64,000 bases of DNA from a virus (taxonomy: Duplodnaviria > Caudoviricetes): the IMG/VR virus record IMGVR_UViG_3300021387_000087; one strand, given 5' to 3'. Each line of letters begins with the position of its first letter. The stretch's first letter is position 1. Under the pieces are notes generated by a model. That model did no database searches. It was not told where the DNA came from and saw nothing but the letters and a program-made list of their open reading frames with translations. The position numbers and the translations under genes are program-made. Of the stretch, positions 28,301 through 63,333 are shown piece after piece.

Positions 28301-29199
28301 CTTGCTTTCTCTATTTTTGAACGTAAATCACCAATAATATTAGTAACATCTTCTTGTGTATATTTACCACCTTTTTCCGAACTTGTGATTGCAGAAATAA
28401 TCTCGTCAAGACGATTTTCTGCGGTCGCATATGCTTTCTGTTGTTCCTCGTTTTTAGGATTCTGCTTTGCAATATATTTTAAACGTTCAGTTAAAGCAGC
28501 CGCTCTTCGCAAATCTGATTTGGTAAAAGAATCAGTTTTCCCACCCGCTTTTAGCCACAGGTCTTCAACTTGCTGTGATGATGCTGTACCGCCTATCATA
28601 TAAGGCATAACATCTTTATAATCTGTTGAAATAGACACATTGCTCATCATTTGGACAATATCTTTTATTGTTTCATCAGCATGCTGACCTAACGCATTTC
28701 GATATTGTGCCTTGAATTTTTGGGTGTCTCTTTTCCCCATACCAAAAGATTCGATAGCCTCATCAAAAATTGAGGCTCCTAAAATTTGTTGAGCAATCTC
28801 CTCCCCAGGTTTAATTTTCTCCCATTTCGAGGCACCTGTTTTAGAAAATTCTGAGCTATAATAATATGGGATCTCTTCTATGCCCCTTCTAAAACCCTCA
28901 ATAATTTGTACTTTAACGCTTTCCGCTAAATCTCCATCGGCTAAAACTTGAGTTAAAGGAGGAATTACATTACTCCAATCCAAATCTTTAAATTTACTAT
29001 TAGACAATAATTCATTGATTTTGCCCAATTCACTTTCAGCCTGTTCTGCTAATTTTTTATCGTTAAAACCTACATCCAATTCATAGTCTTTAAGATTGCC
29101 TTTTAGTCCATTTTTAAGTTGACTAGCAATTTGTTTATAATTATCAATTAACTCAACTGCTAATGATATCTTACCAGTCGCAACACCCTGTCCAGCCAT
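13318..29199 (-). CDS. Tail tape-measure protein (5293 aa) with C-terminal cell-wall/choline-binding-type repeats
   Basis: Very long helical/coiled-coil ORF upstream of Dit; TP901-type core (ELDDALTEMQKVS...ADWMRLG...IVDRLNLIGNNYAI...GKGIRTIALRL) at ~21800-22750; TGWQKVGG.WYY repeats near the C-terminus; AAAGGAGGTG RBS. Confidence 0.9.
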   Translation of the reverse strand: MAGQGVATGKISLAVELIDNYKQIASQLKNGLKGNLKDYELDVGFNDKKLAEQAESELGKINELLSNSKFKDLDWSNVIPPLTQVLADGDLAESVKVQIIEGFRRGIEEIPYYYSSEFSKTGASKWEKIKPGEEIAQQILGASIFDEAIESFGMGKRDTQKFKAQYRNALGQHADETIKDIVQMMSNVSISTDYKDVMPYMIGGTASSQQVEDLWLKAGGKTDSFTKSDLRRAAALTERLKYIAKQNPKNEEQQKAYATAENRLDEIISAITSSEKGGKYTQEDVTNIIGDLRSKIEKASKTRDDIREKLNASQYEQKDIPALLSRLREMVQGERSKQIESTIQEYDKANTLDWDQLFNIIAPDEEPADLRYDDTVTNWLESLAEKTADNRSEEKKQRDDEARRKAQISQAFKNLLNTYGKTGVDSSAENIEGMVDPSVFTDKLEGDVDHLTKQRQEVEKQADELQRAKEELEKENTAIVDVINGNYEQKGVSASKKQLWEKQQAYDEADESNKDLAWIEYYKAYQNMIGGNNGKNMPSNLDKLKTWDKKESLAERLAREFGGEKEFNTDGLREHITNLKQRWIENSTELQNLLNTIAETESQKRAINEQIANIQAEESKPAKVTPESTPDTQEIVDVGQLEQQRKALEEELEELERQYQEQQELNSAIQNIVESINEGESATKFRSEAEIVLEHMYDSDNDVIRDLAQYWESSGETGASFGALESYGEDAQEKLDNLKEQIEARQEKVKEINETIRQMSPTSIEIPNEEAGSGETDEHATEEQLEKYISTYKNIQEKLKEARDEVNKILSDKDNFDPGSLFDHQNALIAKWAEDSDVITIDSFQEFADSLEQKISYWEGRIQQTQNALNDLTNQNGEIPTESLDESATRATGAVEGLSQAQQQGNQVGQQAAETAQGAATAMREEADAANADADAQDRLATSRQNANNAQPPSTPANPTPAPKPEVPPTHPETPVKTDNIKGMQKEGDDADNLTFKFISAAEAKQAFVDANKDVKASAEASAKSIEEESKAALKAKFGFDPEELQNTINTTQKIQTLLTQVSNTINQMGKSSDSAGTTEQLTKIAEAMGQIVEAGQQVSKVMSAVQAEGGLKVDLQNGLDINPLISQFETLNEEVIALVASLASVQSAIGAVDDNSGLPNLLSQIQTIADSLQTISQKDLGFNFNISNTGNAIQQQAAKDRQALKELRSQAESLEKYFSNNLGQNWEGMLKRNGGDNYFKTLWSTQDVLDDKKSTNEEKMEAYKRRIDDLKQYAIEAGADLQSILPKITQAPDAIIDSAKNFALDNSPTELIKQIFGGDNSAVLDAISGKIQEIIGQLNILNSTLSSLSDGSNLTGLKEVFEQIPQKIEAATQKIFELKQQIDTAQFSQGFDEQFKGLTEQLEVAKEQTKATNEELAKTKKLLDEETQARKQLQSEVDKYKNKKANDQQKANAEEKKTLEAEKKALETEKNNLAKQLEAERKQRTEEAEAQNKKLLDEQTKQKNRIELEQIKAAEKAKKEEEKAQQKAADESLSKQYKGYSTDVKGALDAKSVQEIDAAAKHVEETKQRILSQASLKPEDNIFGAQLGDSFTKAASQQVESLKAIENAQASYVAKTIAEYEKQKSALEDLNLAYQYNPNDDTQKMQLLINNPGEEIRGYVENVDSATMALERLKEIVDSMKNGTFNFMDASALKEVLQLTEMLSQNVSGAAAGDKAYKAQVEAQKTAAQAAKDQAEKEALAKAESATKRPIADLNKLEKDLEKIKADSEKLVVIDPALEAQLINVEQALERIRQIKQTLTDEPLKVFDPNTNSVTEQVKQDIESVTNTFKTAKDSITESKNLLASLPASFTGYGTAITKLFGEISNPKATTTSIDAIYKSIKTYTDRISKATNIQRPDFLTGILSENAPDKAVLNQQVALDKVTLGFEKFHSQIIHEAKSTKDDLTKILGGDLFTNIIKQSNFEGINKVFAQGSLSDAAFKVFKKDIVSASESFGNFQKIVEKMQGMSLEEILGNPDIIKEYVTNLKGFEESLDRIKNGAKDFSIVNPSELQKQRAIYQKFLNDNPAISSSARTEMSGLIGQLQTGINSFDASNVVQQLRDIANAEKEAGNTGGTFISMLTERFKSLGTYLLSFVSFYEVIGVFKQGIGIIHELDDALTEMQKVSDESLSSLREYQKSTFDTANDIGTTAAQLQTSTADWMRLGETLQEASQSAQTANVLFNVSEFDNINDATTALVAMSAAYEDAEKGIDKMDIVDRLNLIGNNYAIATDELATALQDGAATLTTAGNDLDEAIALTTAGNLITQDASKTGKGIRTIALRLTGTKEAAEELEEMGEDTSDMIMSQSKMRELIMNATKVASNNYQGFDIQDELGRYKSTYEIMLGLSQIWDEIRQADLKSGDNRQNLLLESIAGKNRASIASSILQNPKTLQSVYEDSSTKAANSAMKENQKYLDSISGHLAKLQNAWQELWANAANRDIINMFIDLGTTILNVINEVGGLQSAFALLYGGTIIRGLMTADSWLVKFVSRLDEAKATSKSLGDVFRTIFDSNKSDDENKSIFKGWAQIQNQRENRAKAKENPEIQALKEQKEAQQEMNDVLEEGNALKEESISVSGEKAAAEVAETTAENANNSAHIEGAVGETTDSVATADNTKKTEENTLATIANKEAEDAQTGSKLSGGMSQGLDGVATGAGSAGTAAGATGLAGLASSPLFWLIAIPAAITIINGLFNYLDQQQQDHIDKAHELTNTWNENKDSLNNYTQQYQDLHKQLENTNLSEEEQANIKKQLYDLQKQITDEYGHSADGVDLVNGKLDEQLDKLRNIKAEEARSNLAHNAGDYENAEEKLTKDRQVYNMSSGGFLSDKDIESLTKDLTGNWGKYDYAGEIGIRFTGNALEAEESMDVLYNRLLELKEEMGEDWDGSGFEGLMNSLTASIQENDEIISKYKDDYNSFLEQSIFAKNGTFGEDNLSAGEVLVEAQEAVDNYNAALVSGDTSQIEKTKTAFDKVKEAANEVVDAMGDQKFNRPFEDIFDKVDQTQIEAYNIKKKFNDSKVKNAVESVLGTPKENKKSAKEIPDTLRDAVENLLNEQQKAYEWGMKGFGVEPLQGLYPTAQFGNVNMNERPVIKWDKKTKKQYADALKSWDYNPEKGSIDTVFGTSEKFNNIDIAFTPIMKNSKNGKGEFLDADTVHDYIQNIINEATDKTTGKIDLGQILELDKPEKGGKGIIAAVNDIGDYTANAVGKMMHFSGKKGAIYLGMEQLSKAAKEAGLDVNNVMEALQKTGSVDALSGLFDDFKYDVTDIEGYLSNLSNLPPEVASDIQTIADAFGITAESSQESINAVAELLGRLGYIATTSLDEAGESFDKFAQKASGWIEETSNLSSTLSKGQGFLTFTKTQDDQGHEIASEVKAIADAYKDLPNYDYASLFEETAGGIMVNADALRALQSQEESMRHAEFYEKRQELMEKFTASSGAVADAYREEIEQLDMLWSAYSGATSALSKYQNGHGSADYSTNYKLFRDQIFKEGDAYLESGETGEEGFRRIAQLFSYKDLALASVKEVEAAYEQGADTMQKFFTEDPTQGANLWIDEIMSWPEEYAEISTNAAGETVMTMTDKNLDAVAEHYGVSKDLILSLMNELNATGSRVHFFTDGQMQQLDKVTEQAEAAKQRLIDLKKTGTDPALAHANLFDFDVATLSAEELESKIKEIQDLKANPDISTETASALDDLLQSMIERLDIINGKHVEPDMEINVDTLDYAKEITGDLNERLDSIKENSKLGFDISIKDDKKIQEFAQQFSQLPEKIQMAYDFTPTNDPEEIIKQIENKYANGVEIKISPVLDNSHIQGYYKDGHAPIGADLITVGVGVDPASEEAAKQEVADTIGSAEPDVGVHAHLASSAEDLKPLTTLGFNGEADFQMNLSADASQANEVIEETKEEATKETEMPLVLKAENTAQDAANQAGVQQGVQTTNHETTIKDEQINTTVTSDTSQVDAANQTVSNLKAMSGSNVSIGLSVDGIEDVDKAKDSIDNLTSQKNPKVKVTINGNSAQFNKTSSDVTNKLNALGKKVTTPKISADNSRLSSKVSDSKSKLSSIKDKTARITASQVGFSTISSWKSSVYDKLSNKTITIKTKYTTEGKPNNGGGFQGSAHNQGTVISKGHAYAGGTLSGDWGLPKAEKGALVNELGSEVIVTPDGHWQILNGGDPTFANLPKGSIIFNHKQSESLLKKGYVNGSHGKMVGGAFANGTVDDEDFDEDELEGKAFAAGTAKWDGQLSGMSHAAGGTLKKASKKSRKGSTSSSSSSKKSSGSGKKSSGKSGKKSSGNSSSNKSSKDNLQTLDAIEIRLNRIDALISQLDTNAAKTYSTFANRNSALVQDLATVQKEINAINSSLSSKSHVYNYLSKASAAAKEAGLKSGDEGYKKGSQGASGTALSQTWIKRIQNSVNSGQYFTINDVRDEGLWKKIQAYQTWYEKYVKMQQKLQDQINKLSQLTIQQLTLIQTKWETTINNIGANITSLQNRIDLVTERGYDVAENYYSSQITENQNKIKALNSEASELQAQLNAAVKAGRIQQYSEEWYKWYIQIKNINNEVIAVNKEIQSLVNSIRQLRWDKFERGQDELSNLADEMEFLGDLINEIDLFDKDTGLVTDKGKAAFALEAQRYDIYIKQAKKYGEAVKRLNADIAKDPNNKTLIDQRNEWLKAQQDAISNAHSQKEAIADLVEKGIKKQIEVMEDLIDKYEDALDAEKEQQKYAESIAKKQKEINSLQKQLKSMEGDDSEEGATKRQKLRDQLKEAQKDLEDTQEDQRISDIKDALSTMQEKYEEVLNARLDNIDALLTEVVSGVNQSGADIVSTLKDVASSVDYSLSGSLNNIYTGVQNLSANVANVAGQVGALVTATSTSNGSVDNTSATTYAKTPTPTVPTTPTVADYTPKSTASSSTAAKSTTTPAKTTAKAKNGFITEGGKTYYYKNDKKQTGWQKVGGNWYYMNSSGAMTTGWQKVGGKWYYLSTKNGAMLKDVQKIGNTYYLLDKTTGALKSNYTGLYKTGSSTYYFKSGTIQTGWRDMKEGRRYFSVNSGKMLTGRQKIGNDEYYFNSNGILQIGKFNVDGYTFETDKNGKIKKRTKTAGGNALKSSSNNSNKAVSTAASKGLKIQGGFAKGTKNVNRAGMYRVDEEGQEVFINKNGKIYTRLNKGTAVLPHDAAVNLLKGMSNPVDFIASHMDMRPNKNITNTNNTTGDIVNNITFNIPNVTNYKEFMQEAQRDPNFTKYIQELSIGRLNGNNSLKGNSIRFR
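13830..14330 (-). repeat. About 7-8 cell-wall-binding (choline/glucan-binding YG-type) repeats within the tape-measure protein
   Basis: QTGWQKVGGNWYYMNSSGAM / TTGWQKVGGKWYYLSTKNGAM / LTGRQKIGNDEYYFNSNGIL. Confidence 0.85.
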
Positions 29200-51986: not shown

Positions 51987-53549
51987 TCACCATTTATCAA
52001 TACCTGCAAGAACATTAATTTCCTTCTGGACTACATCGTACCAATTACCCAAATTTTTGCGCCTGTTCTTGCCGTTACCATATCGTTTTACGATAGAAGA
52101 ATTGCCATTAAGCAAACCTTCCGCAATTTTATAAACCCAGTTTACTTTTGCTTGAACTTCTGTTGCGTTATAACCCGCTTTAGTCAACTTAGTAAACCGT
52201 TCTGTACCATCAACTGCGCCTTTCCCGAATTTTCCTTGATATACTTGCTGAACAATGTCGGGGGTTACTTCTTTAAAAACAACAGGCACGACAGCAGTTT
52301 GCTTTTGATCTGTTTGTTTATCAATTATTTTTTCTTCGGTAACAATCTTCTTACTACCAGAAGAATCTACAATATATTCAATATCGAAAGCGATTTCATT
52401 ATTAACGCATTCAAGAATACCATTCCATGGATAACTATAGTACATTCTTAAATGACTTTCGCCACGACCATATTTCTCATCGTATTCTCCAACTTGTTTC
52501 TGATCACCTTGTTTACCACCAGTAGCAGTGCCTTTCTCATTAATACTGAATTCCATTAATACATCGGGTTCTGCACTAAGGCACATAGCAGTATGACAAG
52601 TTTCATTTAAATAAACATCACCCATTTGAGCGATAAATGACATGGGACGCCATTTAAAATTACCCGTTCCAGTCATACATTTCCTCATATTGCCTGTATA
52701 TGTTGCACCACCACAGCTAATTCCAGCAGCTTCAAATGCGGATATAACAGCAGAAGAGCAATCTCTATCACCAGATTTAATGGTATACTTTCTTCCATAA
52801 ATATCAATTGTTTCTGTTCCTTTACCCCAACGTTTATCCATGTCTTGCGTGTAACCATGATCTTTATGAGTACAAAGATGTTTCATAATTAACATGGCAA
52901 CTTCTTTTTTATATACATGATAAACCTTTTTCACAGGCTCAGTAGTTGAACCTTTTACAGCATTTTCAGCTTTAGTATAAAAAGGTACATACCAGACAGA
53001 TTCATCTACATTACCCGCAATACCCGGAATATGCGCTCTAGAAGTAAACTGCCATCCATCCATAGAATAAGACGGCTTATATTTAATTTCTTGTTTGCCA
53101 GAATTTGTTCCATAAGCTGGAATCCATCTACGGCATTCAAATCCTTTTAAAGGATCACGCCAATAAGCCTGACCTGCATATACACCAGAATTGTTACCAA
53201 ATTCTTTTAGCCACGCAGTAGCCGCTTGTTTATTTAAATGACGCAAATTCCATTCTTCTAAATCAAGCCAATGTGAAACAGGATGGTATTCTTTAGTAAC
53301 CCTTTTCTCATGCTCAATTTCACTTTTGATTTGATTAGTACTTCCAGCATAAGAATACAAATATGTTCCATAGGGGATACCATATTTTTCACATTGCTCT
53401 ACATTATATTTAAAATATTTATCATCCTGTCGTGACGAATTGTCTCCATATCCAGTGCGCAGAATCGCACCGTCAATGTAATCCTTAACACGCTTCCAAT
53501 CAATTTTTCCTTGATGCTCAGACACATCAATAATTCTCTGCTCAGCCAT
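51987..53549 (-). CDS. Endolysin: GH25 muramidase + NlpC/P60-type peptidase/amidase + CW_7-like binding repeats
   Basis: IIDVSEHQGKIDW, WLDLEE, WQFTS (GH25); GDRDCSSAV...HTAM (Cys-His); VQQVYQGKFGKG...LTKAGYN..EVQAKVN (CW_7-like). Confidence 0.85.
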   Translation of the reverse strand: MAEQRIIDVSEHQGKIDWKRVKDYIDGAILRTGYGDNSSRQDDKYFKYNVEQCEKYGIPYGTYLYSYAGSTNQIKSEIEHEKRVTKEYHPVSHWLDLEEWNLRHLNKQAATAWLKEFGNNSGVYAGQAYWRDPLKGFECRRWIPAYGTNSGKQEIKYKPSYSMDGWQFTSRAHIPGIAGNVDESVWYVPFYTKAENAVKGSTTEPVKKVYHVYKKEVAMLIMKHLCTHKDHGYTQDMDKRWGKGTETIDIYGRKYTIKSGDRDCSSAVISAFEAAGISCGGATYTGNMRKCMTGTGNFKWRPMSFIAQMGDVYLNETCHTAMCLSAEPDVLMEFSINEKGTATGGKQGDQKQVGEYDEKYGRGESHLRMYYSYPWNGILECVNNEIAFDIEYIVDSSGSKKIVTEEKIIDKQTDQKQTAVVPVVFKEVTPDIVQQVYQGKFGKGAVDGTERFTKLTKAGYNATEVQAKVNWVYKIAEGLLNGNSSIVKRYGNGKNRRKNLGNWYDVVQKEINVLAGIDKW

Positions 53550-53571
53550 AAGCATCCCCTTTCTACATACT

Positions 53572-53607
53572 AAAAATGCCCACCACACCTATGACAGTGT
53601 GATGGGC
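53572..53607 (-). terminator. Intrinsic terminator after HU
   Basis: Minus strand GCCCATCACAC-tgtcatag-GTGTGGTGGGC followed by ATTTTT. Confidence 0.7.
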
Positions 53608-53642: not shown

Positions 53643-53918
53643 TTAATTTGCAGCTTCTTTAAGAGCCTTACCAATCTTAACAGACACCTTCTTCTTGGCG
53701 GGAATCTCAATAGTCTCCCCAGTCATAGGATTGCGTCCAGTCCTTGCGGCAACATCCTTAACAACAACGGTCATACCGTTAGTCAGCTTCAGATCCTCAT
53801 GTGCTTTAACACAATCAAAGATAACGGACTCCACAGCATTAACAAATGCCTTAGTGTCCACCTTTGTAAAACCAGACTTTTCTGCAACCTTTGAAATAAA
53901 TTCCTGCTTGTTTACCAT
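53643..53918 (-). CDS. hup: HU-family DNA-binding protein
   Basis: NKQEFISKVAEKSG...AARTGRNPMTGETIEIPAKK. Confidence 0.92.
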   Translation of the reverse strand: MVNKQEFISKVAEKSGFTKVDTKAFVNAVESVIFDCVKAHEDLKLTNGMTVVVKDVAARTGRNPMTGETIEIPAKKKVSVKIGKALKEAAN

Positions 53919-54100: not shown

Positions 54101-56743
54101 TTAGTCACTTTTAAAACATTGCAAGAACTGTTCTGGATTTAAAGTATATAAAACTTTCAATAGAATTGCTCTATTGTTATGAGTTTTACTTGTAGGAGCG
54201 CCACCAATATTTTTTATATTCTGTGTAATAACAAAAGCTCTATCTATTAAATAAGACATAAGCCCTATATATTTCTTTCCAAATTTAATTTCTCTAATAT
54301 CAGCTATTAATTGATCGAAATCATTGCGTAATAATAAAATATCTTCTTGAGAATCGTTATCGCCTTTCCGATTATATTGGTCTAATTTAAAACTATACTT
54401 TTCAATTAGTTTTTCAACTTTTCTGTTATTGTATTTTGTATCATTATCATAATGTTTTATAAAAAAATGCTCCATCAGAATTGGTTTAACATAATCTGCT
54501 AAAGTTGGATTAATGTTCATATTATAAAGAACATTCATCGGACAACGTATAGATCCGTTATATTTATCAGCACTAATATTTAACGAACCCATGCCATTGC
54601 GTTTATTATTATATTTCTGAATAGGCTTAAAAAATATCGGGTAACCATTGGCTTTAATATTTAAGTCTCTTTGAATTCTTTTTGTCTCTTCATTTAAATC
54701 AATATCATAAGCACGCTTACTTGAATCTATATATATTTGTGCAAGAACAGATAATATACTTACATAATCTTGATATTTTTTATCTGGAAAGGTATAAGAG
54801 TAGGAAAGTGCTATTTGCGCTAAATTAGATGATAACCCTATTCCCATTTGTGAAGACATTAACTTGTTGTCTATATTTGATAAATCTAAAGCCGTATTTT
54901 TATAACGTGTTGTATCTTTGGGAATATTGTTTTTTATTGTGGGAAATTGTAGTTGGCAATTTCTTGCATGAGAAACTATTGCGGATTGATTTGTAACATA
55001 AATTGTATCTCCGTCCATATCTGAGCCATTGTTTCTCTCTTCGAATACAGTTTCTCGCATATTTATTGCTATGCAATTTTTCCCTAAATAGAAATATTTT
55101 TTTATCCTCCAGTCCAAACGATTTTTCAAATAACCCATATTATTGGGACTATTAAAAGGACTCCTCATTTCACACAATAATTCCCCGTCTTCAAATCGTT
55201 CACTATAACATTGAATCGCTAATTCTTCCTGCTCAAACGTAGGATCATCTTCGGGCTTTTCTCCTACGGCAAACATTAACTCAGCATAAGGCGAACCAAC
55301 TATTGTCATATTATCGCCATTATTGATTATCCGTCCTGTCTTACTCATTTTTACATAAGACTTGATGATATTTGAACGCCGTTGTCTAAAATAACTAGAC
55401 CTTACAAAATCTTTATTGTGCTTTACCAAAGCCAATAGCACATCATAATCATTAGAAAAATTAACACCACGCCTTAAATAATCTAAAAACACATTGTCAT
55501 CAGTTTTTAATTTATATATATAATCCTTAGTACATTGGACAATACTCTCCATAATTTCTTCAGACATACAATTAACATGTTGATAACTCATCTTCTGGAC
55601 ATTACCCAATTTAGATTTTTTGGCAGTTTTTACAATCCCGAAATAACTATCATTATCTTCGATAACTCGTTTACACCAATAATCATAGTTGATTCGACCA
55701 TTCTTAAACTTAATCCACTTCATAGCCGATTCGTGACAAATGATTTTTACATCTTTAGCATAATGCTCATGACCAAATATATCTGTCAATTTCCACGTCT
55801 CATAATCAATCCCGTGTTCAGCAGCGTAATCTCTAAAAAACCCCTGAATGTCGGTATCAAAACATGCCATCTTGCAAAAATGATTTCTAAGAAGAACAAA
55901 ACCGTTAATTTTTGGGAACTGTTCACGAACAAAATTATGATCAATCAATCCTTGCCCATCAAACATTGAATTGCTAATCTTAGCATTTTCACGCTTTACT
56001 GCATGTACGTGCCCATCTTCACCTTTTTCAATACTTATAATATCTTTAAAGCAATAAGAGTCATAATCATCAAGTACCAATATATCATAAGGATTAACCT
56101 TAATTTTCCCAATAATTGTACTCGTAGCCAGAGAAGAATAGGCTTCAGCTTCAACCAATAGCGGATTTTCATACTCATTAAGATCAATCCCCATATAAAG
56201 ATATTCTTTAGCTACATCGTACAATTCCTCTCTAATAAAATCTACAGTCCCCTTTTTAGCTTTGCCCGGTGTCCTGAACAGTCTTTTGTAATGAATCGTT
56301 TGTGATTCTTTACCTTTGCGAGCAGGAGGATAAGTAACATCTACACCTTCTGTGTAAACTTTATCTCTCGCTTCAGCACGATTATATCTAACATATTTGT
56401 CTTGATTTACTTCAGCCCTCGTTAGCAACTCATTAAAGTATTGTAGCTTTTGTTCTTTTTCCTCTTCACTTAATTTGTCGTTTTTCTCTGTATCTTTAAT
56501 ACATTTTTTAATATGTGCTTTTTCTTGTTCGTAGCTTCTTGTACCGTATTTAAAATCAAGAACAATTACATCTCTGGTTGAAGTATCTCTATAAATATCC
56601 AACCCATGTTTCTTCATATAATCTAAAAACAGACTATTACAAAGCATAGCGTCCGTCATATCAATATAATCACGGACGCCAGCATTCTTCTCTAAAAGGC
56701 TTCCAACAACGATGTTTTTAATCTTTATTCCGTATTCGCCCAT
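54101..56743 (-). CDS. YonO-like single-subunit two-barrel DNA-dependent RNA polymerase
   Basis: 880 aa; FDGQGLID, LLRNHFCK, MRSPFN and catalytic GSDMDGD (DxDGD), IDSSKR; adjacent to HU as yonO is to yonN in SPbeta. Confidence 0.85.
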   Translation of the reverse strand: MGEYGIKIKNIVVGSLLEKNAGVRDYIDMTDAMLCNSLFLDYMKKHGLDIYRDTSTRDVIVLDFKYGTRSYEQEKAHIKKCIKDTEKNDKLSEEEKEQKLQYFNELLTRAEVNQDKYVRYNRAEARDKVYTEGVDVTYPPARKGKESQTIHYKRLFRTPGKAKKGTVDFIREELYDVAKEYLYMGIDLNEYENPLLVEAEAYSSLATSTIIGKIKVNPYDILVLDDYDSYCFKDIISIEKGEDGHVHAVKRENAKISNSMFDGQGLIDHNFVREQFPKINGFVLLRNHFCKMACFDTDIQGFFRDYAAEHGIDYETWKLTDIFGHEHYAKDVKIICHESAMKWIKFKNGRINYDYWCKRVIEDNDSYFGIVKTAKKSKLGNVQKMSYQHVNCMSEEIMESIVQCTKDYIYKLKTDDNVFLDYLRRGVNFSNDYDVLLALVKHNKDFVRSSYFRQRRSNIIKSYVKMSKTGRIINNGDNMTIVGSPYAELMFAVGEKPEDDPTFEQEELAIQCYSERFEDGELLCEMRSPFNSPNNMGYLKNRLDWRIKKYFYLGKNCIAINMRETVFEERNNGSDMDGDTIYVTNQSAIVSHARNCQLQFPTIKNNIPKDTTRYKNTALDLSNIDNKLMSSQMGIGLSSNLAQIALSYSYTFPDKKYQDYVSILSVLAQIYIDSSKRAYDIDLNEETKRIQRDLNIKANGYPIFFKPIQKYNNKRNGMGSLNISADKYNGSIRCPMNVLYNMNINPTLADYVKPILMEHFFIKHYDNDTKYNNRKVEKLIEKYSFKLDQYNRKGDNDSQEDILLLRNDFDQLIADIREIKFGKKYIGLMSYLIDRAFVITQNIKNIGGAPTSKTHNNRAILLKVLYTLNPEQFLQCFKSD

Positions 56744-56763: not shown

Positions 56764-57981
56764 TCACAACATTTGCAGTTTCTCAACTTGCTCTTTTAAA
56801 GCAGCCACAAACAATTTAATTTCGTATTCAGTCGTATTTCTATCCATACTAATACGAATCGTATTATTAATCTCTTTGTCTGTTAAACCAATTTCCTTCA
56901 ACACTTTACTCGGTTTCTTAACTCCTGCATGACAAGCACTACCAGCAGACACTTGACAACCCTCAAAAATATCCAAATTAGTTATTAGCTGTTCATTGTC
57001 AATTCCATTAAAAGTAACATTAACGATATTTGTCAATCCGTTATAGGGGCTATTAATCTTTATGTCATATCTTGTCATTAGGAAATCCAACAAAAGACTT
57101 CTACATCTTTTCAAATTCCTATTATCTTCATCAATAGTCTTATACGCTTGATCCATAGCCCGACCCATCATAACAATAGAAGGAGCGTCTTCAGTGCCAG
57201 ACCGCATTCCTTTTTCCTGACCACCACCATGCAGAAGCGGATTAATTTCAATGCCATTTCTTACATACAAAAAACCAACCCCATGAGGTGCGCCGAACTT
57301 ATGACCAGACACCGACATCATATCAATACCCATATCTTGTACGTCAATCTTCATATGCGTAAAAGCTTGAACTGCATCTACATGCAACACTCCATCATAC
57401 TTGTGTACAATTTTACTAATTGTCTTAATATCATTAATTGACCCAATTTCATTATTCGCCATCATAATTGACACAAGAATTGGATATTGTTTAACATTTG
57501 GCGTATAACGAATACGTTCTTCCAAAGATTCTAAATCAACCGTACCGCTATTATGACATTTCACTATATTCACACTATTGGCAATACTCATTTCATAAAG
57601 CCATACAGCAGGATTAATAACAGAAGGATGCTCAAGACTTGAGACAAAAATTGATGGTGTTAAACGATAATAATCAAACATCTTAGAAGACCCACGAGGA
57701 GCATTCCAATGATGATACTTCTCACAACACCACCCCTTAATCGCTAGATTATTGGCTTCTGTACCTCCAGATGTAAAGATAATCTTATCGCCATCCTGAC
57801 CATTAATACACTTCAAAATATCCTGTCGTACATCCTCAATAGCCTGTCGTGTCTTCATCGATCCCTGAGAGATAGAAGAGGGGTTCCACCAATATTCCCT
57901 ACATAAGGAGCCATACTCCTGTATCATTTCTTCCTCAGGCTGCATTGTAGCAGCGTTATCAAAATAAAGTGATGCTGACAT
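56764..57981 (-). CDS. Cysteine desulfurase (IscS/NifS type)
   Basis: YFDNAAT, FTSGGTEANN, HVDAVQ, SGHKFG (PLP Lys), RSGT, SAGSAC (catalytic Cys). Confidence 0.92.
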   Translation of the reverse strand: MSASLYFDNAATMQPEEEMIQEYGSLCREYWWNPSSISQGSMKTRQAIEDVRQDILKCINGQDGDKIIFTSGGTEANNLAIKGWCCEKYHHWNAPRGSSKMFDYYRLTPSIFVSSLEHPSVINPAVWLYEMSIANSVNIVKCHNSGTVDLESLEERIRYTPNVKQYPILVSIMMANNEIGSINDIKTISKIVHKYDGVLHVDAVQAFTHMKIDVQDMGIDMMSVSGHKFGAPHGVGFLYVRNGIEINPLLHGGGQEKGMRSGTEDAPSIVMMGRAMDQAYKTIDEDNRNLKRCRSLLLDFLMTRYDIKINSPYNGLTNIVNVTFNGIDNEQLITNLDIFEGCQVSAGSACHAGVKKPSKVLKEIGLTDKEINNTIRISMDRNTTEYEIKLFVAALKEQVEKLQML

Positions 57982-58009
57982 TTATTCACCATACCTTTCT
58001 ATATATTTT

Positions 58010-58243
58010 TTAATCCCCAAGAGGGATTTGTTTAACATCACAGAATTGTTCGAATAACTCTCCATTGCTAATTGCCTCTTGCATTCTTTCATCTATTGCA
58101 CTCATCAAAAAATTAAATGTCATATGTTTATTAGGACTCCAAACATACTTATAATTCCATTTATCTACAATAGGATACCCAAAAGGATTAGGCTTCCATT
58201 TTTGCTTTAATCCTTCGACAAAAGCAATATATTCATCAACCAT
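58010..58243 (-). CDS. Small hypothetical protein
   Basis: 77 aa, overlaps the upstream gene in the operon. Confidence 0.55.
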   Translation of the reverse strand: MVDEYIAFVEGLKQKWKPNPFGYPIVDKWNYKYVWSPNKHMTFNFLMSAIDERMQEAISNGELFEQFCDVKQIPLGD

Positions 58244-58427
58244 TTCTTCTTCGACCTTTCAATTCCAATATCCAAGCCTCAAACATTCCCTCTTCAACAT
58301 CTTTACACCATCCAATCCTATGGTCATAATAATACAGTCCGACCTGTTCACCTTTGCGCCTTACCTGATAATTACCAGATTCCATACAAAAATCATAACC
58401 ATCCAGTTTCGTTTCAAACCAAGTCAT
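58236..58427 (-). CDS. Small hypothetical protein
   Basis: 63 aa, ATGA overlap with the upstream gene. Confidence 0.55.
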   Translation of the reverse strand: MTWFETKLDGYDFCMESGNYQVRRKGEQVGLYYYDHRIGWCKDVEEGMFEAWILELKGRRRNG

Positions 58428-58765
58428 TCCTCAACCTCCACAGTGTATAATGGTTTTTTAAAATCATGTACAGATGTAAAATGCATATCTATATCTAAAT
58501 ATCGATTCGCTACAATTCTATATATCTTGTCTCCATTATGATTATAAGTACAATAATCATCTTGATTAACTTCTATCTGTATATCAGATTCAGCAATAAC
58601 TTTAGAAGTAAATACCATACCATTCATTTTCAGTTTCAAATAAAATGGCTTATTCTCATTAATATCAATAGCGCTCATATCAAAATACGAAGTGCCACAA
58701 TAAGGACAAGTATTTAATTCTGTTTTGTACGGTGCCCCGCAGTTAGGACAATTTCTTTGACTCAT
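58424..58765 (-). CDS. Double zinc-ribbon protein
   Basis: MSQRNCPNCGA......CPYCG; start overlaps the end of the radical SAM gene. Confidence 0.65.
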   Translation of the reverse strand: MSQRNCPNCGAPYKTELNTCPYCGTSYFDMSAIDINENKPFYLKLKMNGMVFTSKVIAESDIQIEVNQDDYCTYNHNGDKIYRIVANRYLDIDMHFTSVHDFKKPLYTVEVEE

Positions 58766-59663
58766 TTTCAACCTCATTCCGAATCACTTGAAACATCTCA
58801 TCAACAGTTTTATTTCCAATAGGATAATGGATTTCCGACAGACTACTTCTTGCAAACGTCCCATTTACCAAATCAATATAAAACGTAATAGTGCCATCAT
58901 CACCCGCATAAAACATTTCCCAATCTTCATCAGAAAGTTTATCTCTCATATGAAGTTGCTCAAGTGCAAGATTATCAAAAGATACAACGTCAAAATGATC
59001 TGTCAATCGCATAATATCCTGTTCAAGAAAATAAATCTTGGATTCAATATTATACATATGATCCTTATAAAAATTATTGCCACGACCTTTATGTTTATAT
59101 CCCAAAATAAGAAGTTTTAGTCCCTTATCCATCATATATTTAATATCGGTTTGTTTAACAACACCTGCAATTACATGAATAATGGCATTAGGATATTCTT
59201 TAACAGTATCAATAAATCCCTCTTCGGTAGGATTAACTAAAGAAATACCAATTCCCTTAATCAAATCCATTTTATATAGAAACTTAATAAACTGCTGACC
59301 ATACTCACTCATAAAATGTCTCTGATTAATTGTTGCATTGACAAACACATTCTGGGCTTTCATGGTATATAAAAATTCCATCAAATCGGGGGGTGTAGGA
59401 AACTGAAGATTAATCGCAAGTTCTGTATAAGGATGCATGGTATGCAGAAATTTCCAACTTGTTAAATCACCATGCTTACCAGTAGGAGAGCATCCCGCAT
59501 AGCAAAATTCACATCCATTATCGCAACACTGCGAAATTTGAATATCACAGGATTCTGAGAAATCATAATAGAAATCATCATCATTTGTTACGTGAAATTT
59601 TGTTCCATCATCAAAAATTGTGGTAATTGTATTACCATTCTTATATGTAGCAAGTTCTTTCAT
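58743..59663 (-). CDS. Radical SAM enzyme
   Basis: CDNGCEFC (CxxxCxxC); 306 aa; no C-terminal Cys-rich SPASM domain. Confidence 0.85.
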   Translation of the reverse strand: MKELATYKNGNTITTIFDDGTKFHVTNDDDFYYDFSESCDIQISQCCDNGCEFCYAGCSPTGKHGDLTSWKFLHTMHPYTELAINLQFPTPPDLMEFLYTMKAQNVFVNATINQRHFMSEYGQQFIKFLYKMDLIKGIGISLVNPTEEGFIDTVKEYPNAIIHVIAGVVKQTDIKYMMDKGLKLLILGYKHKGRGNNFYKDHMYNIESKIYFLEQDIMRLTDHFDVVSFDNLALEQLHMRDKLSDEDWEMFYAGDDGTITFYIDLVNGTFARSSLSEIHYPIGNKTVDEMFQVIRNEVENESKKLS

Positions 59664-59672
59664 TACATCTCC

Positions 59673-59972
59673 TTAATGATCTTCTTTTGCATAGCTTATA
59701 CCAACTACTTTATCGCCATGGTCTGTAGTATAATGCTTTATTTCATAGTCTGCTTCTTCGTCAAAATAACTATCTCTATAGCGCCAACTTTCTAACTCTT
59801 TCTCTGTCAGACCTTGTATACTAACCCATTTTTCATCCCATATATCCCATTTATAATTATCATCTTCATCCATCTTCATTAATGCGTCATATTCTTTTTT
59901 TGGCATAATTATTAACGAATGCGAGAGGGATGAATTAGTTTCCCAAACACCGTATCTTATATTCTTTTTCAT
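59673..59972 (-). CDS. ETNSS-motif protein 4 (99 aa)
   Basis: MKKNIRYGVWETNSSLSHSL; C-terminal YTTDHGDKVVGIS. Confidence 0.75.
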   Translation of the reverse strand: MKKNIRYGVWETNSSLSHSLIIMPKKEYDALMKMDEDDNYKWDIWDEKWVSIQGLTEKELESWRYRDSYFDEEADYEIKHYTTDHGDKVVGISYAKEDH

Positions 59973-59987
59973 TTTATTTTAACCTCA

Positions 59988-60401
59988 CTACTCTGAAATA
60001 TACTGTGAAACAGCAACTACAACATCGCCACTAGGAGTCGTTAATTCTTTTATAATACTATCGCCTACATCGTCATCTGAATGTGCAAAACGGGCATACT
60101 GAAAACGATTCGCATAAAAATCAAAAATTTCATTATCAGTTAAATCAATGAAATCTTTACTCTTTTCCCAACGACCCGATTCATAATCTTTTTTAAACCA
60201 AGAGTTTTCTCTACCCTGTTGAATAATATCTTTTTTAGAAATCCATTCATTATTCCATGTATCCCAAAACCAATCGGGATCATATCGTTTTTTATCAGCT
60301 TCTCGCTCTTGTTTAAGATAATCTTCTTTAAGCATAAGAGTGAGTGTATGCTGACTACTTGAATTTGTTTCAAAAGTCTTATATCTAATTTGTGTTTTCA
60401 T
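59988..60401 (-). CDS. ETNSS-motif protein 3 (137 aa)
   Basis: MKTQIRYKTFETNSSSQHTL; C-terminal LTTPSGDVVVAVS. Confidence 0.75.
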   Translation of the reverse strand: MKTQIRYKTFETNSSSQHTLTLMLKEDYLKQEREADKKRYDPDWFWDTWNNEWISKKDIIQQGRENSWFKKDYESGRWEKSKDFIDLTDNEIFDFYANRFQYARFAHSDDDVGDSIIKELTTPSGDVVVAVSQYISE

Positions 60402-61452
60402 TAAGCACCACCTGTCTATTCACATCAGCAAGAAACTTGTTAATCCTATCATAATCAGGATTAGCAGGAAGTTCCGTATGTTCTTTCCAGTATTCTAATT
60501 TACTCTCTAAATCATCTACAATATCATAAAACTCTGGAAGTGGATGATCCTCGTCATCAAGGTACTTGCCATTCCTGATATCCATAAGAAAATCGTGTTC
60601 TTTCGCACGATATGTAATAATCTCACCTTTTTCAAGAATATCAAAACACATCAGATAAAGCCGTACCAGATGCATCATATGCTTTCCAAGTTTGCCACGT
60701 TCAATCGCTTTACGATTCCGCGCACCAATTTTTGCATATTCTTTAACAATTGCAACCATTTCTGACCACATAGACTTATAATCTCGAAGCGGATAGTGCT
60801 TCAAGTTAACATCCATGAAAATCTCAGTGTCGTAATCAGGATTTACCGCTTCATCAATATATAATTTAATTGCATCTTCTGGATATTCAAAAAACTTTGT
60901 AGGAAAAGTATATTTGGCATTTTCAATACTACGCAGAATAAACTCTTCACGCTTAGTCTGTTCCATAGTTCTAGCGGCACGGTTTTCGAGCCTACGAAGC
61001 TGTGACGAGGCATAACCGCCAAAAGAATGAATAGCACGCTTAGAAAGAAACATATCCCTGTTATCAATCAAAGCCTGACCAATATCTGTCACATAAAAAT
61101 ACTGCCAAGGCTCAAGACCAAGAATTTCAATTGTATTAGGATTGCAATTGGAGAGAAGATTAACAATTTTCTCAAGAGAATAAACAGTAGTATCTGTTTC
61201 TTCATTTACAACTTGCTCAAATCCCTTACGAGTAAGAATGTCCTCTGCGCTATGAGTAGCCACACCACGCACATCGATATCACTATTTTCATTATTGGTG
61301 CCATAGGCATAGCTGCCACCAAGTCCCAGAAGAACAATATTGTCGCCCAAAGGCTTTTCCCGCAAAAACTTGTATCTTTCATCTTCATACAACGCTGTTT
61401 GAATATCTTCTACAACCATTGCGATTTCTAAATCATCTGCTGTTCTAATCAT
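60385..61452 (-). CDS. Pol-beta-superfamily nucleotidyltransferase (RlaP/YcgL-like)
   Basis: GGSYAYGTNNENSDIDVRG (GS...DxD), CNPNTIEIL, FGGYA, KHMMHLVRL, LPANPD. Confidence 0.8.
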   Translation of the reverse strand: MIRTADDLEIAMVVEDIQTALYEDERYKFLREKPLGDNIVLLGLGGSYAYGTNNENSDIDVRGVATHSAEDILTRKGFEQVVNEETDTTVYSLEKIVNLLSNCNPNTIEILGLEPWQYFYVTDIGQALIDNRDMFLSKRAIHSFGGYASSQLRRLENRAARTMEQTKREEFILRSIENAKYTFPTKFFEYPEDAIKLYIDEAVNPDYDTEIFMDVNLKHYPLRDYKSMWSEMVAIVKEYAKIGARNRKAIERGKLGKHMMHLVRLYLMCFDILEKGEIITYRAKEHDFLMDIRNGKYLDDEDHPLPEFYDIVDDLESKLEYWKEHTELPANPDYDRINKFLADVNRQVVLNENTN

Positions 61453-61944
61453 TTAATCACACCTTGTCTCCAATCCAACATATTTATTAAAAATAAATTC
61501 AACACACGCTTGAGAATCCCAAAGACTTACTATACAATTATCATCACACCAACCACCATCCAGCTGTTGATGATCAAAATAATCATAAGCTTCTTCCCAT
61601 TTACATTCATCTACTTTAACACCACGACATAACACGCCGTTATGTTTTGTTACATATTTCCCAAATGCTTCATTAAAATAGTTTATAATATATCCTTTAT
61701 CCTCAATCTTTTCTATATCAAAGTTATAATAAGCATACAACCATGTCATGATATATTTTAATTTTGTTTTCTGATTAAAGAACTGAGCCTCATCCTTGCC
61801 AAAATACTGATCCAAAGTGATATGCACATAACCATCTTCATGGATTTTCATATGACATTTTTCTAATCCTCTTTTACTAAAACAGAAGCTATGCACACTA
61901 CTGCTATTAGTCTCCCAAACATTACTCCGAATCTGTGTCTTCAT
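61453..61944 (-). CDS. ETNSS-motif protein 2 (163 aa)
   Basis: MKTQIRSNVWETNSSSVHSF; KTKLKY; YFDHQ. Confidence 0.75.
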   Translation of the reverse strand: MKTQIRSNVWETNSSSVHSFCFSKRGLEKCHMKIHEDGYVHITLDQYFGKDEAQFFNQKTKLKYIMTWLYAYYNFDIEKIEDKGYIINYFNEAFGKYVTKHNGVLCRGVKVDECKWEEAYDYFDHQQLDGGWCDDNCIVSLWDSQACVEFIFNKYVGLETRCD

Positions 61945-62770
61945 CTATCCAATCTCCATTTTCATCAAAATCTTCGGGATGCTTTTCTTTATATAATTCC
62001 CAATCATAAGACCCCTCTTTTGGGTATTTAATCTGAATTGCGTTTTTATCCACAATTCCAGCTTCTAACATAGTGCCAAAAATATCACACTCATCGCCAT
62101 CTACGATAACCACGATATCTTTACGAATTAAGTAATCCTCAAGAGTGATATTATATTTTTCCAGAAATCGTTGAAAAAGTCCTACACTCTGATGATCCAC
62201 GCTTCCGAACTTAGGTACCTCTAACCAGATTTCTTCCTGCTTACGACCAGAATTACAGATTTCTTTATAATAAGGTTCTGAATCCTTATTGTAATAACTC
62301 CAGTTTCCATTGCGAACCAAATCATCGTATGGAACTTCTTCATAAGTTGTATAATCCTGATTCAAATCATCTGTTACAGTGTCTGAATATACACGAAATC
62401 TCTCTGAATCCATGTATGGTTCTACTTTGTCAACTCCAATTAGTTTCTTTAAAAGTGGCTCAAATACCTCATGAAATGTATTTTCACCTCGAATATAACT
62501 CTCTAAGCTATAACAACTTCCGCACATAGAAGCCAAAGCATAAGATAGCTTATCCCGAAAAGATGTAAGAACATCGAACTCTCTACCGAATTCTTTATTA
62601 CAATCGTGCATCAACTGAAGAGTGTGCTTATCTTTATTCCAATCCTCATCAAGATAATACTCATCTCGAATTTCTTTCTGAGTCATTGTCTGACGCTTTT
62701 TCATAATCAAAAGACTGTGCATTGATGAAGAATTAGTCTCCCAAGCCCCTTTTCTTACCGTCATTTTCAT
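61922..62770 (-). CDS. ETNSS-motif protein 1 (282 aa)
   Basis: MKMTVRKGAWETNSSSMHSL; RDKLSY; SVDHQS. Confidence 0.75.
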   Translation of the reverse strand: MKMTVRKGAWETNSSSMHSLLIMKKRQTMTQKEIRDEYYLDEDWNKDKHTLQLMHDCNKEFGREFDVLTSFRDKLSYALASMCGSCYSLESYIRGENTFHEVFEPLLKKLIGVDKVEPYMDSERFRVYSDTVTDDLNQDYTTYEEVPYDDLVRNGNWSYYNKDSEPYYKEICNSGRKQEEIWLEVPKFGSVDHQSVGLFQRFLEKYNITLEDYLIRKDIVVIVDGDECDIFGTMLEAGIVDKNAIQIKYPKEGSYDWELYKEKHPEDFDENGDWIDEDTDSE

Positions 62771-62898
62771 AAATAAAATCTCCTTTTAATTATATATTCT
62801 TTATTCATCCATCTAATCATTATCACATCTTTACAGGGATAAAAACGTGGTTTGATATACCACAATAGCCTGTCAAGTTCTTTACAAATATCTTTCAT
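62767..62898 (-). CDS. Small leader ORF (43 aa)
   Basis: GAGGTG RBS; MKDICKELDRLLWYIKPRFYPCKDVIMIRWMNKEYIIKRRFYL*; its TGA overlaps the ATG of the next gene. Confidence 0.55.
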   Translation of the reverse strand: MKDICKELDRLLWYIKPRFYPCKDVIMIRWMNKEYIIKRRFYL

Positions 62899-62921: not shown

Positions 62922-62949
62922 AGTATATCAAACCACACAAAAATGTCAA
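62922..62949 (-). promoter_or_regulatory. Sigma-A/70-like promoter
   Basis: TTGACA-N16-TATACT with an extended -10 TG (TGaTATACT). Confidence 0.65.
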
Positions 62950-62952
62950 TAT

Positions 62953-63333
62953 TTAATTATCACTTTCTACAACTTTCTTTTTCTTTCCCGATCTTTTCAG
63001 TTTAATCTCTTCTTGACGAGCAGCTTCTTCAATGGCTCTCATATCACGATTAAGACGTCCAAACACACGAGCATACCTTCTATGCTCATTAGGATCTTTA
63101 TATGTTTTCTCTTCACGTCTTGCACGCTCTGTCGCCCATTCACGACTATCTTTCTCAAAAGGGTTTTTCTGATAAGAATAAGTCTTACCGTCTTCTTTAC
63201 GTTTCGCAAATTTTGCCATACGCTTCTCATGACGCTTCTGTTTAATTGCTTTATTAATTGCACGCTGACCACGGGACTTATAACCTTTGCACCACTCATT
63301 ATGTTTCTTATTAGGTTTACTCATCTTTATCAC
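62953..63333 (-). CDS. Highly basic hypothetical protein
   Basis: 126 aa, K/R-rich; overlaps the SPFH stop; true start may be MSKPNK. Confidence 0.6.
   Translation of the reverse strand: MIKMSKPNKKHNEWCKGYKSRGQRAINKAIKQKRHEKRMAKFAKRKEDGKTYSYQKNPFEKDSREWATERARREEKTYKDPNEHRRYARVFGRLNRDMRAIEEAARQEEIKLKRSGKKKKVVESDN

Follow-up and report, generated by a model that had tools for sequence, protein, structure and literature searches.

Large phages encode a conserved, co-transcribed and sometimes fused pair of partners: a radical S-adenosylmethionine (rSAM) enzyme and proteins that open with a shared N-terminal tag. We analyzed this module in a 64,000-nt stretch (hereafter the window) of the IMG/VR virus record IMGVR_UViG_3300021387_000087 (Caudoviricetes), where four open reading frames (ORFs) of 282, 163, 137, and 99 aa, here ETNSS1 to ETNSS4, begin with MKxx[IV]Rxxx[WF]ETNSS at identical spacing from Met1, with motif, lengths, and coordinates as an earlier sequence-only reading had given them. 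That reading took the motif for a tag tied to the neighboring rSAM enzyme, which is borne out by two-way gene linkage, by natural fusions, and by a model of the complex that confines enzyme contacts to tail residues 1–14, inside the barrel. That the tagged proteins are clients of the enzyme, which would carry out radical chemistry on the tail, we regard as about an even call. The core genes in the window are as follows.

61922-62770, minus strand: ETNSS1, tagged protein of body family A, 282 aa; tag at 62711-62770; FG, KxxY, VDHQ, and DGD motifs.
61453-61944, minus strand: ETNSS2, tagged protein of body family A, 163 aa; tag at 61885-61944.
59988-60401, minus strand: ETNSS3, tagged protein of body family B, 137 aa; tag at 60342-60401.
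59673-59972, minus strand: ETNSS4, tagged protein of body family B, 99 aa; tag at 59913-59972, with the third Ser replaced by Leu.
58743-59663, minus strand: single-cluster rSAM enzyme with a CxxxCxxC motif, 306 aa; core partner, with an N-terminal β-hairpin predicted to receive the tag.

The motif recurs far beyond chance. Across the four window copies, the alignment leaves M1, K2, R6, E11, T12, N13, S14, S15, and H18 invariant, and [FW]ETNSSSxH is encoded in >564 IMG/VR stretches. The 392 distinct tagged proteins gathered from ~210 fetched loci give the logo M-K-[RK]-Q-I-R-x-G-V-F-E-T-N-S-S-S-x-H-S-L, with E, N, S, S, S, and H conserved at 93–99% each and a Met1-to-Glu distance of 9 or 10 residues. 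Searching 1.84 billion proteins with a profile of ETNSS2 homologs retrieved 2081 unnamed cluster representatives (50% identity; E ≤ 0.001), and R6, S14, S15, H18, and D163 are invariant in this family. Searched against Pfam, NCBIfam, and PHROGs, the four ETNSS proteins match no family, with only a weak match to phrog_28997.

The same tail is carried by unrelated proteins. Grouping the bodies after removal of the first 24 residues yields family A (231 members including ETNSS1 and ETNSS2; motifs FGW, KxxY, DH[Q], and TxxD), family B (128 members including ETNSS3 and ETNSS4; median 131 aa), and ~20 further small body groups. The description of the four window proteins as otherwise divergent holds between families A and B, which are unrelated (hhalign probability 0.3%), but not within the pairs: tag-less ETNSS1 aligns to the ETNSS2-family profile across the DHQ...TxxD region (hhalign probability 93.8%, E = 1.8e-7), and ETNSS3 aligns to ETNSS4 at E = 7e-4. 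Fold searches returned little, with a best E of 1.6 for an ETNSS2 model against the PDB (Foldseek), a best Z of 3.1 for ETNSS2 models against 48,161 chains (VIA-align), nothing below E = 0.99 for the family-A profile against PDB sequences, and, in BFVD, only uncharacterized phage proteins plus one rSAM fusion; ten minor tagged body types gave 0 Pfam matches. In the ESM Atlas, the ETNSS2 model found clusters of its own family and one further cluster at TM 0.54. This last similarity spans 120 residues of the family-A core and a 261-aa phage cluster with Tad2-like (PF11195) members, and is a lead only, since the part of those proteins that aligns is not established.

Tagged genes and the rSAM gene are linked in both directions. 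Three locus sets were compared: 79 tag-seeded viral loci (39 lineages), 47 tag-seeded loci from species genomes, and 80 rSAM-seeded loci, the IMG/VR loci being the best 80 of >564 tag-seeded and the best 80 of 495 rSAM-seeded stretches. A hidden Markov model of the rSAM family finds the enzyme in 68/79 viral and 39/47 species-genome loci, and in 48/55 and 25/25, respectively, of those flanked by 5 kb or more on each side; conversely, 79/80 rSAM-seeded loci hold tagged ORFs. Cases lacking an rSAM neighbor, which the sequence-only reading had named as grounds for abandoning the idea if common, are thus rare. Among four searchable "orphan" phage records, three encode the rSAM elsewhere on the contig and the fourth is a fragment estimated to be 10% complete. 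In 191/191 cases the tagged gene closest to rSAM is on the rSAM strand, separated by a median of 8 nt, and when neighbors within 5 kb were clustered by BLAST across the 39 lineages, rSAM recurred in 27, as against 7 for a desulfurase, 3 for RlaP, and 3 for Band_7. With R for rSAM, the most frequent arrangements are A-B-R (83 loci), A-A-B-R (22), A-A-R (17), and A-R (13), compared with A, A, (RlaP), B, B, rSAM in the window, and a single rSAM gene can accompany up to seven tagged clients. One 216,868-bp complete phage (G002; L070, L217) has a split module, in which a B-type gene lies beside the rSAM gene and an A-type gene ~30 kb away.

The two partners also occur as one polypeptide. Profile search uncovered proteins of ~460–520 aa that join tag, A body, and rSAM (P0215, P0279, P0200-P0205, P0273, P0290, and P0303), one of which (P0279) is encoded identically in two unrelated metagenomes, and a phage entry in UniProt/BFVD has the same architecture; a search with ETNSS2 residues 1–40 for longer proteins gave no candidates. 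The tag is fully intact in the fusions, which argues that the tail does more than tether a client to its enzyme.

The enzyme is small and is identified as an rSAM protein by its cysteines and its family. Its C47, C51, and C54 are invariant in 25/25 aligned family members, the window copy included, and 16/25 match PF04055 (best 4e-12). The same alignment contains no SPASM or twitch cysteines: no Cys beyond the triad is invariant, and the protein ends ~250 residues after it. Neither the enzyme nor its neighbors match a PqqD-like RiPP (a peptide synthesized on ribosomes and modified after translation) recognition element (RRE) in Pfam. Profile comparisons give weak matches to the peptide maturases HxsC, WgkB, PqqE, and SkfB and to NrdG2 and PFLA models, and only weak rSAM rows in the PDB. 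Two sub-branches can be told apart, one with C..C.FCHE[GN]S and GGG[DN] and another with C..C.FCY.GC, which adds a fourth Cys and has the GGG replaced; the latter includes the window copy, Lak phages, L002, and L013. Because the enzyme has no auxiliary cluster, we considered but set aside the idea that it inserts sulfur.

Structural models place the tag outside the folded body and inside the enzyme. Two AlphaFold monomer models of ETNSS2 (from 23 and 76 sequences) have an overall predicted local distance difference test score (pLDDT) of 82 and 87 and an α/β core above 90, while residues 1 to 19–20 fall to ~40–53 in both. The motif had been considered at risk of proving a buried strand of a known fold; in the models it is instead flexible, and the ETNSS2 core matches no known fold. 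The enzyme was then modeled with ETNSS2 as the only client, from the rSAM and ETNSS2 alignments with a 4Fe-4S cluster and SAM. Three runs scored ipSAE 0.83, 0.86, and 0.82, against 0.00, 0.01, and 0.03 for three controls, with at least 63% contact agreement between runs and a partner pLDDT of at least 72; 58/80 solved complexes and 2/110 mismatched pairs reach this ipSAE mark. In these models enzyme contacts are limited to tail residues 1–14, and the folded body makes no confident contact. Tail residues 2–8 are predicted to pair as a strand with the N-terminal β-hairpin of the enzyme (residues 19–31; against 20–26), residue 10 would contact enzyme residues 20 and 109, and residues 10–14 ([WF]-E-T-N-S) appear to reach into the barrel and onto invariant enzyme residues. 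The predicted barrel contacts are 81, 83–85, 107–111, 136–139, 159–163, 183–185, 225–228, 249–253, and 274, among which E81, A83, N109, T111, G137, G139, H163, L185, Y252, and S274 are both contacted and invariant or nearly so. The models support binding of the tail by the rSAM enzyme, and a free arm that enters the enzyme is a well-supported picture of the tail at the level of prediction.

We favor a model in which the tail is the substrate, because only the tail touches the enzyme, up to seven clients accompany one enzyme gene, and the tail sits on unrelated bodies. The conserved unit comprises at least one family-A gene, usually at least one family-B gene, and then a ~300-aa rSAM enzyme with a single [4Fe-4S] site, every client starting with a flexible tail, MKxQIRxxV[FW]ETNSSSxHS. 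A 5′-deoxyadenosyl radical would take a hydrogen from the tail, with T12 to S14 the likeliest positions, and the resulting covalent change, whose occurrence we infer, would be needed by A and B proteins alike. One enzyme could in this way mature multiple clients that are not related to one another, in the manner of the anaerobic sulfatase maturase and its sulfatases. A more ambitious version, which we offer tentatively and would not call probable, is that this SPASM-less enzyme installs a novel modification or protein-derived cofactor in the ETNSSSxH tail, and that the matured A and B proteins form a widespread large-phage effector, probably acting in counter-defense or nucleic-acid repair.

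Several observations weigh against this substrate model. The window copy of the enzyme has no PF04055 match at E ≤ 0.1 (it matches PHROG 16999, "Fe-S oxidoreductase", at 5e-31), and GGG[DN], present in most family members, is replaced by NLQF or NGND in this copy and its sub-branch. Judging by the alignment, the enzyme appears to be devoid of auxiliary-cluster cysteines, unlike most rSAM peptide and protein maturases. Our custom alignments and ligands depart from the conditions of the docking calibration, whose counts therefore hold only roughly, and ETNSS2 was the single client modeled. Tail residues 15–20 (S-S-x-H-S-L) are as invariant as residues 10–14 yet make no confident contact in the model, so recognition alone cannot explain them. 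Finally, stand-alone fusions with no other tagged gene nearby would imply a self-modifying, single-turnover enzyme, and fit better with a tail that acts as a subunit or adaptor.

The strongest alternative follows from these last points, though we consider it unlikely: enzyme and tagged proteins may form a holoenzyme. The tail would then act in trans as a plug, completing or gating the rSAM site, and the two kinds of body would serve as exchangeable specificity subunits that deliver another substrate, such as a nucleotide, RNA, DNA, or a host protein. The linkage and docking data apply equally to this arrangement, and tag-A-rSAM fusions that stand alone in their loci are what one usually sees when two proteins are subunits of a single enzyme. 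The run of seven invariant residues looks like a catalytic loop, the invariance of residues 15–20, which the model leaves out of contact with the enzyme, also speaks for this arrangement, and the conserved polar set of family A (K61, Y64, D124, H125, Q126, and D163) could bind a ligand. On the other hand, the model places only the tail, not the body, in confident contact with the enzyme, and where one enzyme gene has as many as seven clients, these would all compete for one site. Nor are we aware of an rSAM enzyme whose active site uses a loop supplied by a partner.

Comparison with RiPP pathways raises another possibility, that the tail is a core peptide which is modified by the rSAM enzyme, cut off, and released, leaving the bodies as follower or scaffold domains. 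The predicted entry of a flexible tail into the barrel and the weak HxsC, WgkB, PqqE, and SkfB matches would suit such a pathway, but no protease or exporter recurs in the neighborhood, the bodies are well folded and conserved with invariant polar residues, and making an identical product from 2–7 genes would be redundant; we consider it improbable. Less probable still is a tail that serves as a self-processing site or a packaging or protease signal, cleaved for instance at [FW]-E or N-S like capsid-targeting sequences, next to a functionally unrelated rSAM gene. Its fixed distance from Met1 would be in keeping with such a signal, and its hydrophobic-x-Glu and Asn-Ser dipeptides are similar to contexts in which cleavage is known, but neither the near-obligate, adjacent, co-directional linkage to rSAM nor the fusions would be expected, and the module lies in early or auxiliary regions, away from head genes.

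The nucleotidyltransferase encoded between the two pairs of tagged genes is a true RlaP-family member (PF10127 at 85.5 bits against a cut-off of 23; phrog_388 at 1.8e-54; GGS...DID signature present), and RlaP proteins add nucleotides to damaged RNA 3′ ends (bioRxiv 10.64898/2025.12.29.696909). The sequence-only reading had made it part of the system and had offered, as its own alternative, that the paralogs form a heteromeric enzyme acting with it on nucleotides or RNA. RlaP occurs in only 6/79, 6/47, and 10/80 loci (~10%) of the three sets, so its membership is not supported. The heteromeric enzyme, although in line with the RNA 3′-end family of the transferase and with RtcB, RNA ligases, a kinase-phosphatase-ligase fusion, PTH2, and Band_7 near some modules, fails on the same counts (3/39 lineages), on the presence of each RNA-repair neighbor in only 2–5 lineages, and on a canonical A-B-rSAM module with nothing in between, and is the least credible of the explanations considered.

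The substrate model has partial precedents among known rSAM systems. Among them are the anaerobic sulfatase maturases (anSME/AtsB), in which likewise one rSAM enzyme serves several folded clients through a short, invariant, Ser-containing motif near the N-terminus, with client genes often beside the enzyme gene. They differ in that anSME has a SPASM domain with two auxiliary clusters and recognizes (C/S)xPxR inside an alkaline-phosphatase fold, whereas the ETNSS module has a single-cluster, SPASM-less enzyme, a motif that is a free N-terminal tail, and client bodies that match no known fold; the ETNSSSxH tail does not contain (C/S)xPxR and there is no sulfatase Pfam match. The PflA and NrdG activases are also small single-cluster enzymes of similar size that take a protein loop into the barrel, in accord with the weak NrdG2 and PFLA matches, but their substrates are large enzymes with a C-terminal RVxG[FWY] loop, whereas ETNSS clients are of 100–300 aa, the tail has no conserved Gly, and the Gly of the body (FGW) lies outside an RVxG[FWY] context. 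PqqE/PqqD/PqqA, SuiB, SkfB, and HxsB/C resemble the module in that a peptide is recognized by strand addition with an adjacent stretch in the barrel, and some match weakly in sequence; in contrast, the ETNSS enzyme has no Pfam match to a PqqD-like RRE and no SPASM domain, a short N-terminal hairpin being predicted to do the recognizing, and the motif stands at the very N-terminus of "precursors" that are themselves folded. RlaP (PF10127) enters this comparison only as the family of the 355-aa nucleotidyltransferase, a lineage neighbor outside the conserved module.

The module of enzyme plus tag recurs in hundreds of large phages. Its carriers are phages of Bacillota, of Bacteroidota (Lak megaphages, where the rSAM gene is followed by four tagged genes), and of cyanobacteria (Microcystis phage Ma-LMM01, as gp130 and gp128), and one Agrobacterium genome (Agrobacterium rubi, four A genes and then rSAM); it is also found in gut and rumen genomes assigned to Lachnospiraceae, Clostridia, Bacteroidota, and Thermoguttaceae. 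The module has no name in Pfam, NCBIfam, or the literature searched, where we found no paper on the tag or on this rSAM family. Kaur et al. 2020 (PMC7159879) describe rSAM/SPASM genes with C-terminal peptides in conflict systems, which are different from the ETNSS tag.

To our knowledge, few rSAM enzymes modify whole proteins: the maturases of sulfatases, the activases of glycyl-radical enzymes, and a small number whose targets are ribosomal or methanogenic proteins. Each has revealed new chemistry. Since the substrate site is narrowed to a 20-residue peptide and the enzyme is small, the biochemistry can be tested directly at low cost. Should the matured proteins counter host defenses or repair RNA or DNA, they would represent a new class of phage auxiliary function and would account for a block of "hypothetical" genes that large phages repeatedly carry.

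The remaining features of the window operon are as follows.

62922-62949, minus strand: putative sigma-70-like promoter (TTGACA, 16 nt, TG-TATACT; 11/12), ahead of the operon and the best such site in the region, by consensus match only.
62767-62898, minus strand: 43-aa ORF, a doubtful gene; 4-nt overlap with the ETNSS1 start, no family match, conserved only inside the lineage.
60385-61452, minus strand: RlaP-family Pol-beta nucleotidyltransferase, 355 aa, between the A and B genes; accessory.
58424-58777, minus strand: zinc-ribbon protein, 117 aa; lineage-specific.
58010-58427, minus strand: two small ORFs, 63 and 77 aa; lineage-specific, no family.
56764-57981, minus strand: NifS/IscS-type cysteine desulfurase, 405 aa, with PLP (pyridoxal phosphate) lysine SGHK and catalytic Cys GSAC; recurrent accessory.

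Among the accessory genes, the desulfurase is the most frequent. It matches PF00266 (Aminotran_5) at 208 bits as a class-V aminotransferase whose closest models are NifS, DndA, and IscS, with scores under the equivalog cut-offs (NifS 308 of 531 bits, IscS 246 of 643 bits). The sequence-only reading had placed it in the maturation pathway as the sulfur supply, a claim that survives in reduced form: the gene is a recurrent neighbor (20/79, 4/47, and 12/80 loci; ~17%), not a core member. It probably feeds iron-sulfur assembly, which is the simplest reading of its presence given an enzyme that lacks an auxiliary cluster. A NifS-like gene is found in 9/19 loci with no rSAM within 10 kb, compared with 15/107 loci with rSAM, counts that ignore shared ancestry; it lies near or abuts rSAM-less family-A genes in L029 (9995-11630, direct abutment), L019, L025, L032, L016, and L017.

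Other neighbors vary by lineage. Neither the zinc ribbon nor either small ORF recurs outside the phage lineage of the window, and all three are passengers, like the nucleotidyltransferase. DNA methylases, metallophosphoesterases, a phosphoadenosine phosphosulfate (PAPS)-reductase-like protein, RNA ligases, RtcB, PTH2, and Band_7 also recur with no fixed partner, and by its neighbors the module sits in auxiliary or early and counter-defense regions. Band_7 is near the module in five lineages, in L002 and L003 alongside RtcB, a metallophosphoesterase, PTH2, and an ADP-ribosylglycohydrolase. A ~200-aa family with no Pfam match (cluster 45) lies between rSAM and desulfurase in four lineages (L005 13136-13837, L009 10007-10615, L013 12052-12627, L029 9274-9765, and L077 9454-10038); it is absent from the window, where the 63- and 77-aa ORFs fill the matching gap from zinc ribbon to desulfurase. 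One phage contig (L036) carries a TnpB/Cas12f-like gene (10259-11407; OrfB_IS605, Cas12f1-like TNB domain) directly after rSAM.

The window operon is compact. Every long ORF in the 64 kb is on the minus strand, and the genes run in the order 43-aa ORF, ETNSS1, ETNSS2, nucleotidyltransferase, ETNSS3, ETNSS4, rSAM, zinc ribbon, two small ORFs, desulfurase, 880-aa protein, and HU, with intergenic spacing of −35 to +28 nt across the operon and a GGAG/GAGG-like Shine-Dalgarno site 6–10 nt 5′ of every ETNSS ATG. The next strong terminator-like hairpin on the operon strand, also the strongest in the region, is at 53607-53578, downstream of the HU gene. Megablast of the whole region against phage records gave 0 matches, as did tblastn with ETNSS1. 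The 880-aa protein (54101-56743, minus strand) has a DMDGD motif and the look of a YonO-like RNA polymerase with no Pfam match, and its place after the desulfurase is repeated in L005, L009, and L013; the HU-family gene (PF00216) follows at 53643-53918 (minus strand). Upstream of the operon are a Lys-rich 126-aa ORF (62953-63333, minus strand) and a Band_7/SPFH protein (PF01145; 63317-64000, minus strand). Farther off, a 5293-aa ORF at 13318-29199 (minus strand) amid tail-region genes is probably a giant tape-measure or tail protein, and beyond the terminator an endolysin with GH25, ELLD, and CW_7 repeats is encoded at 51987-53588 (minus strand).

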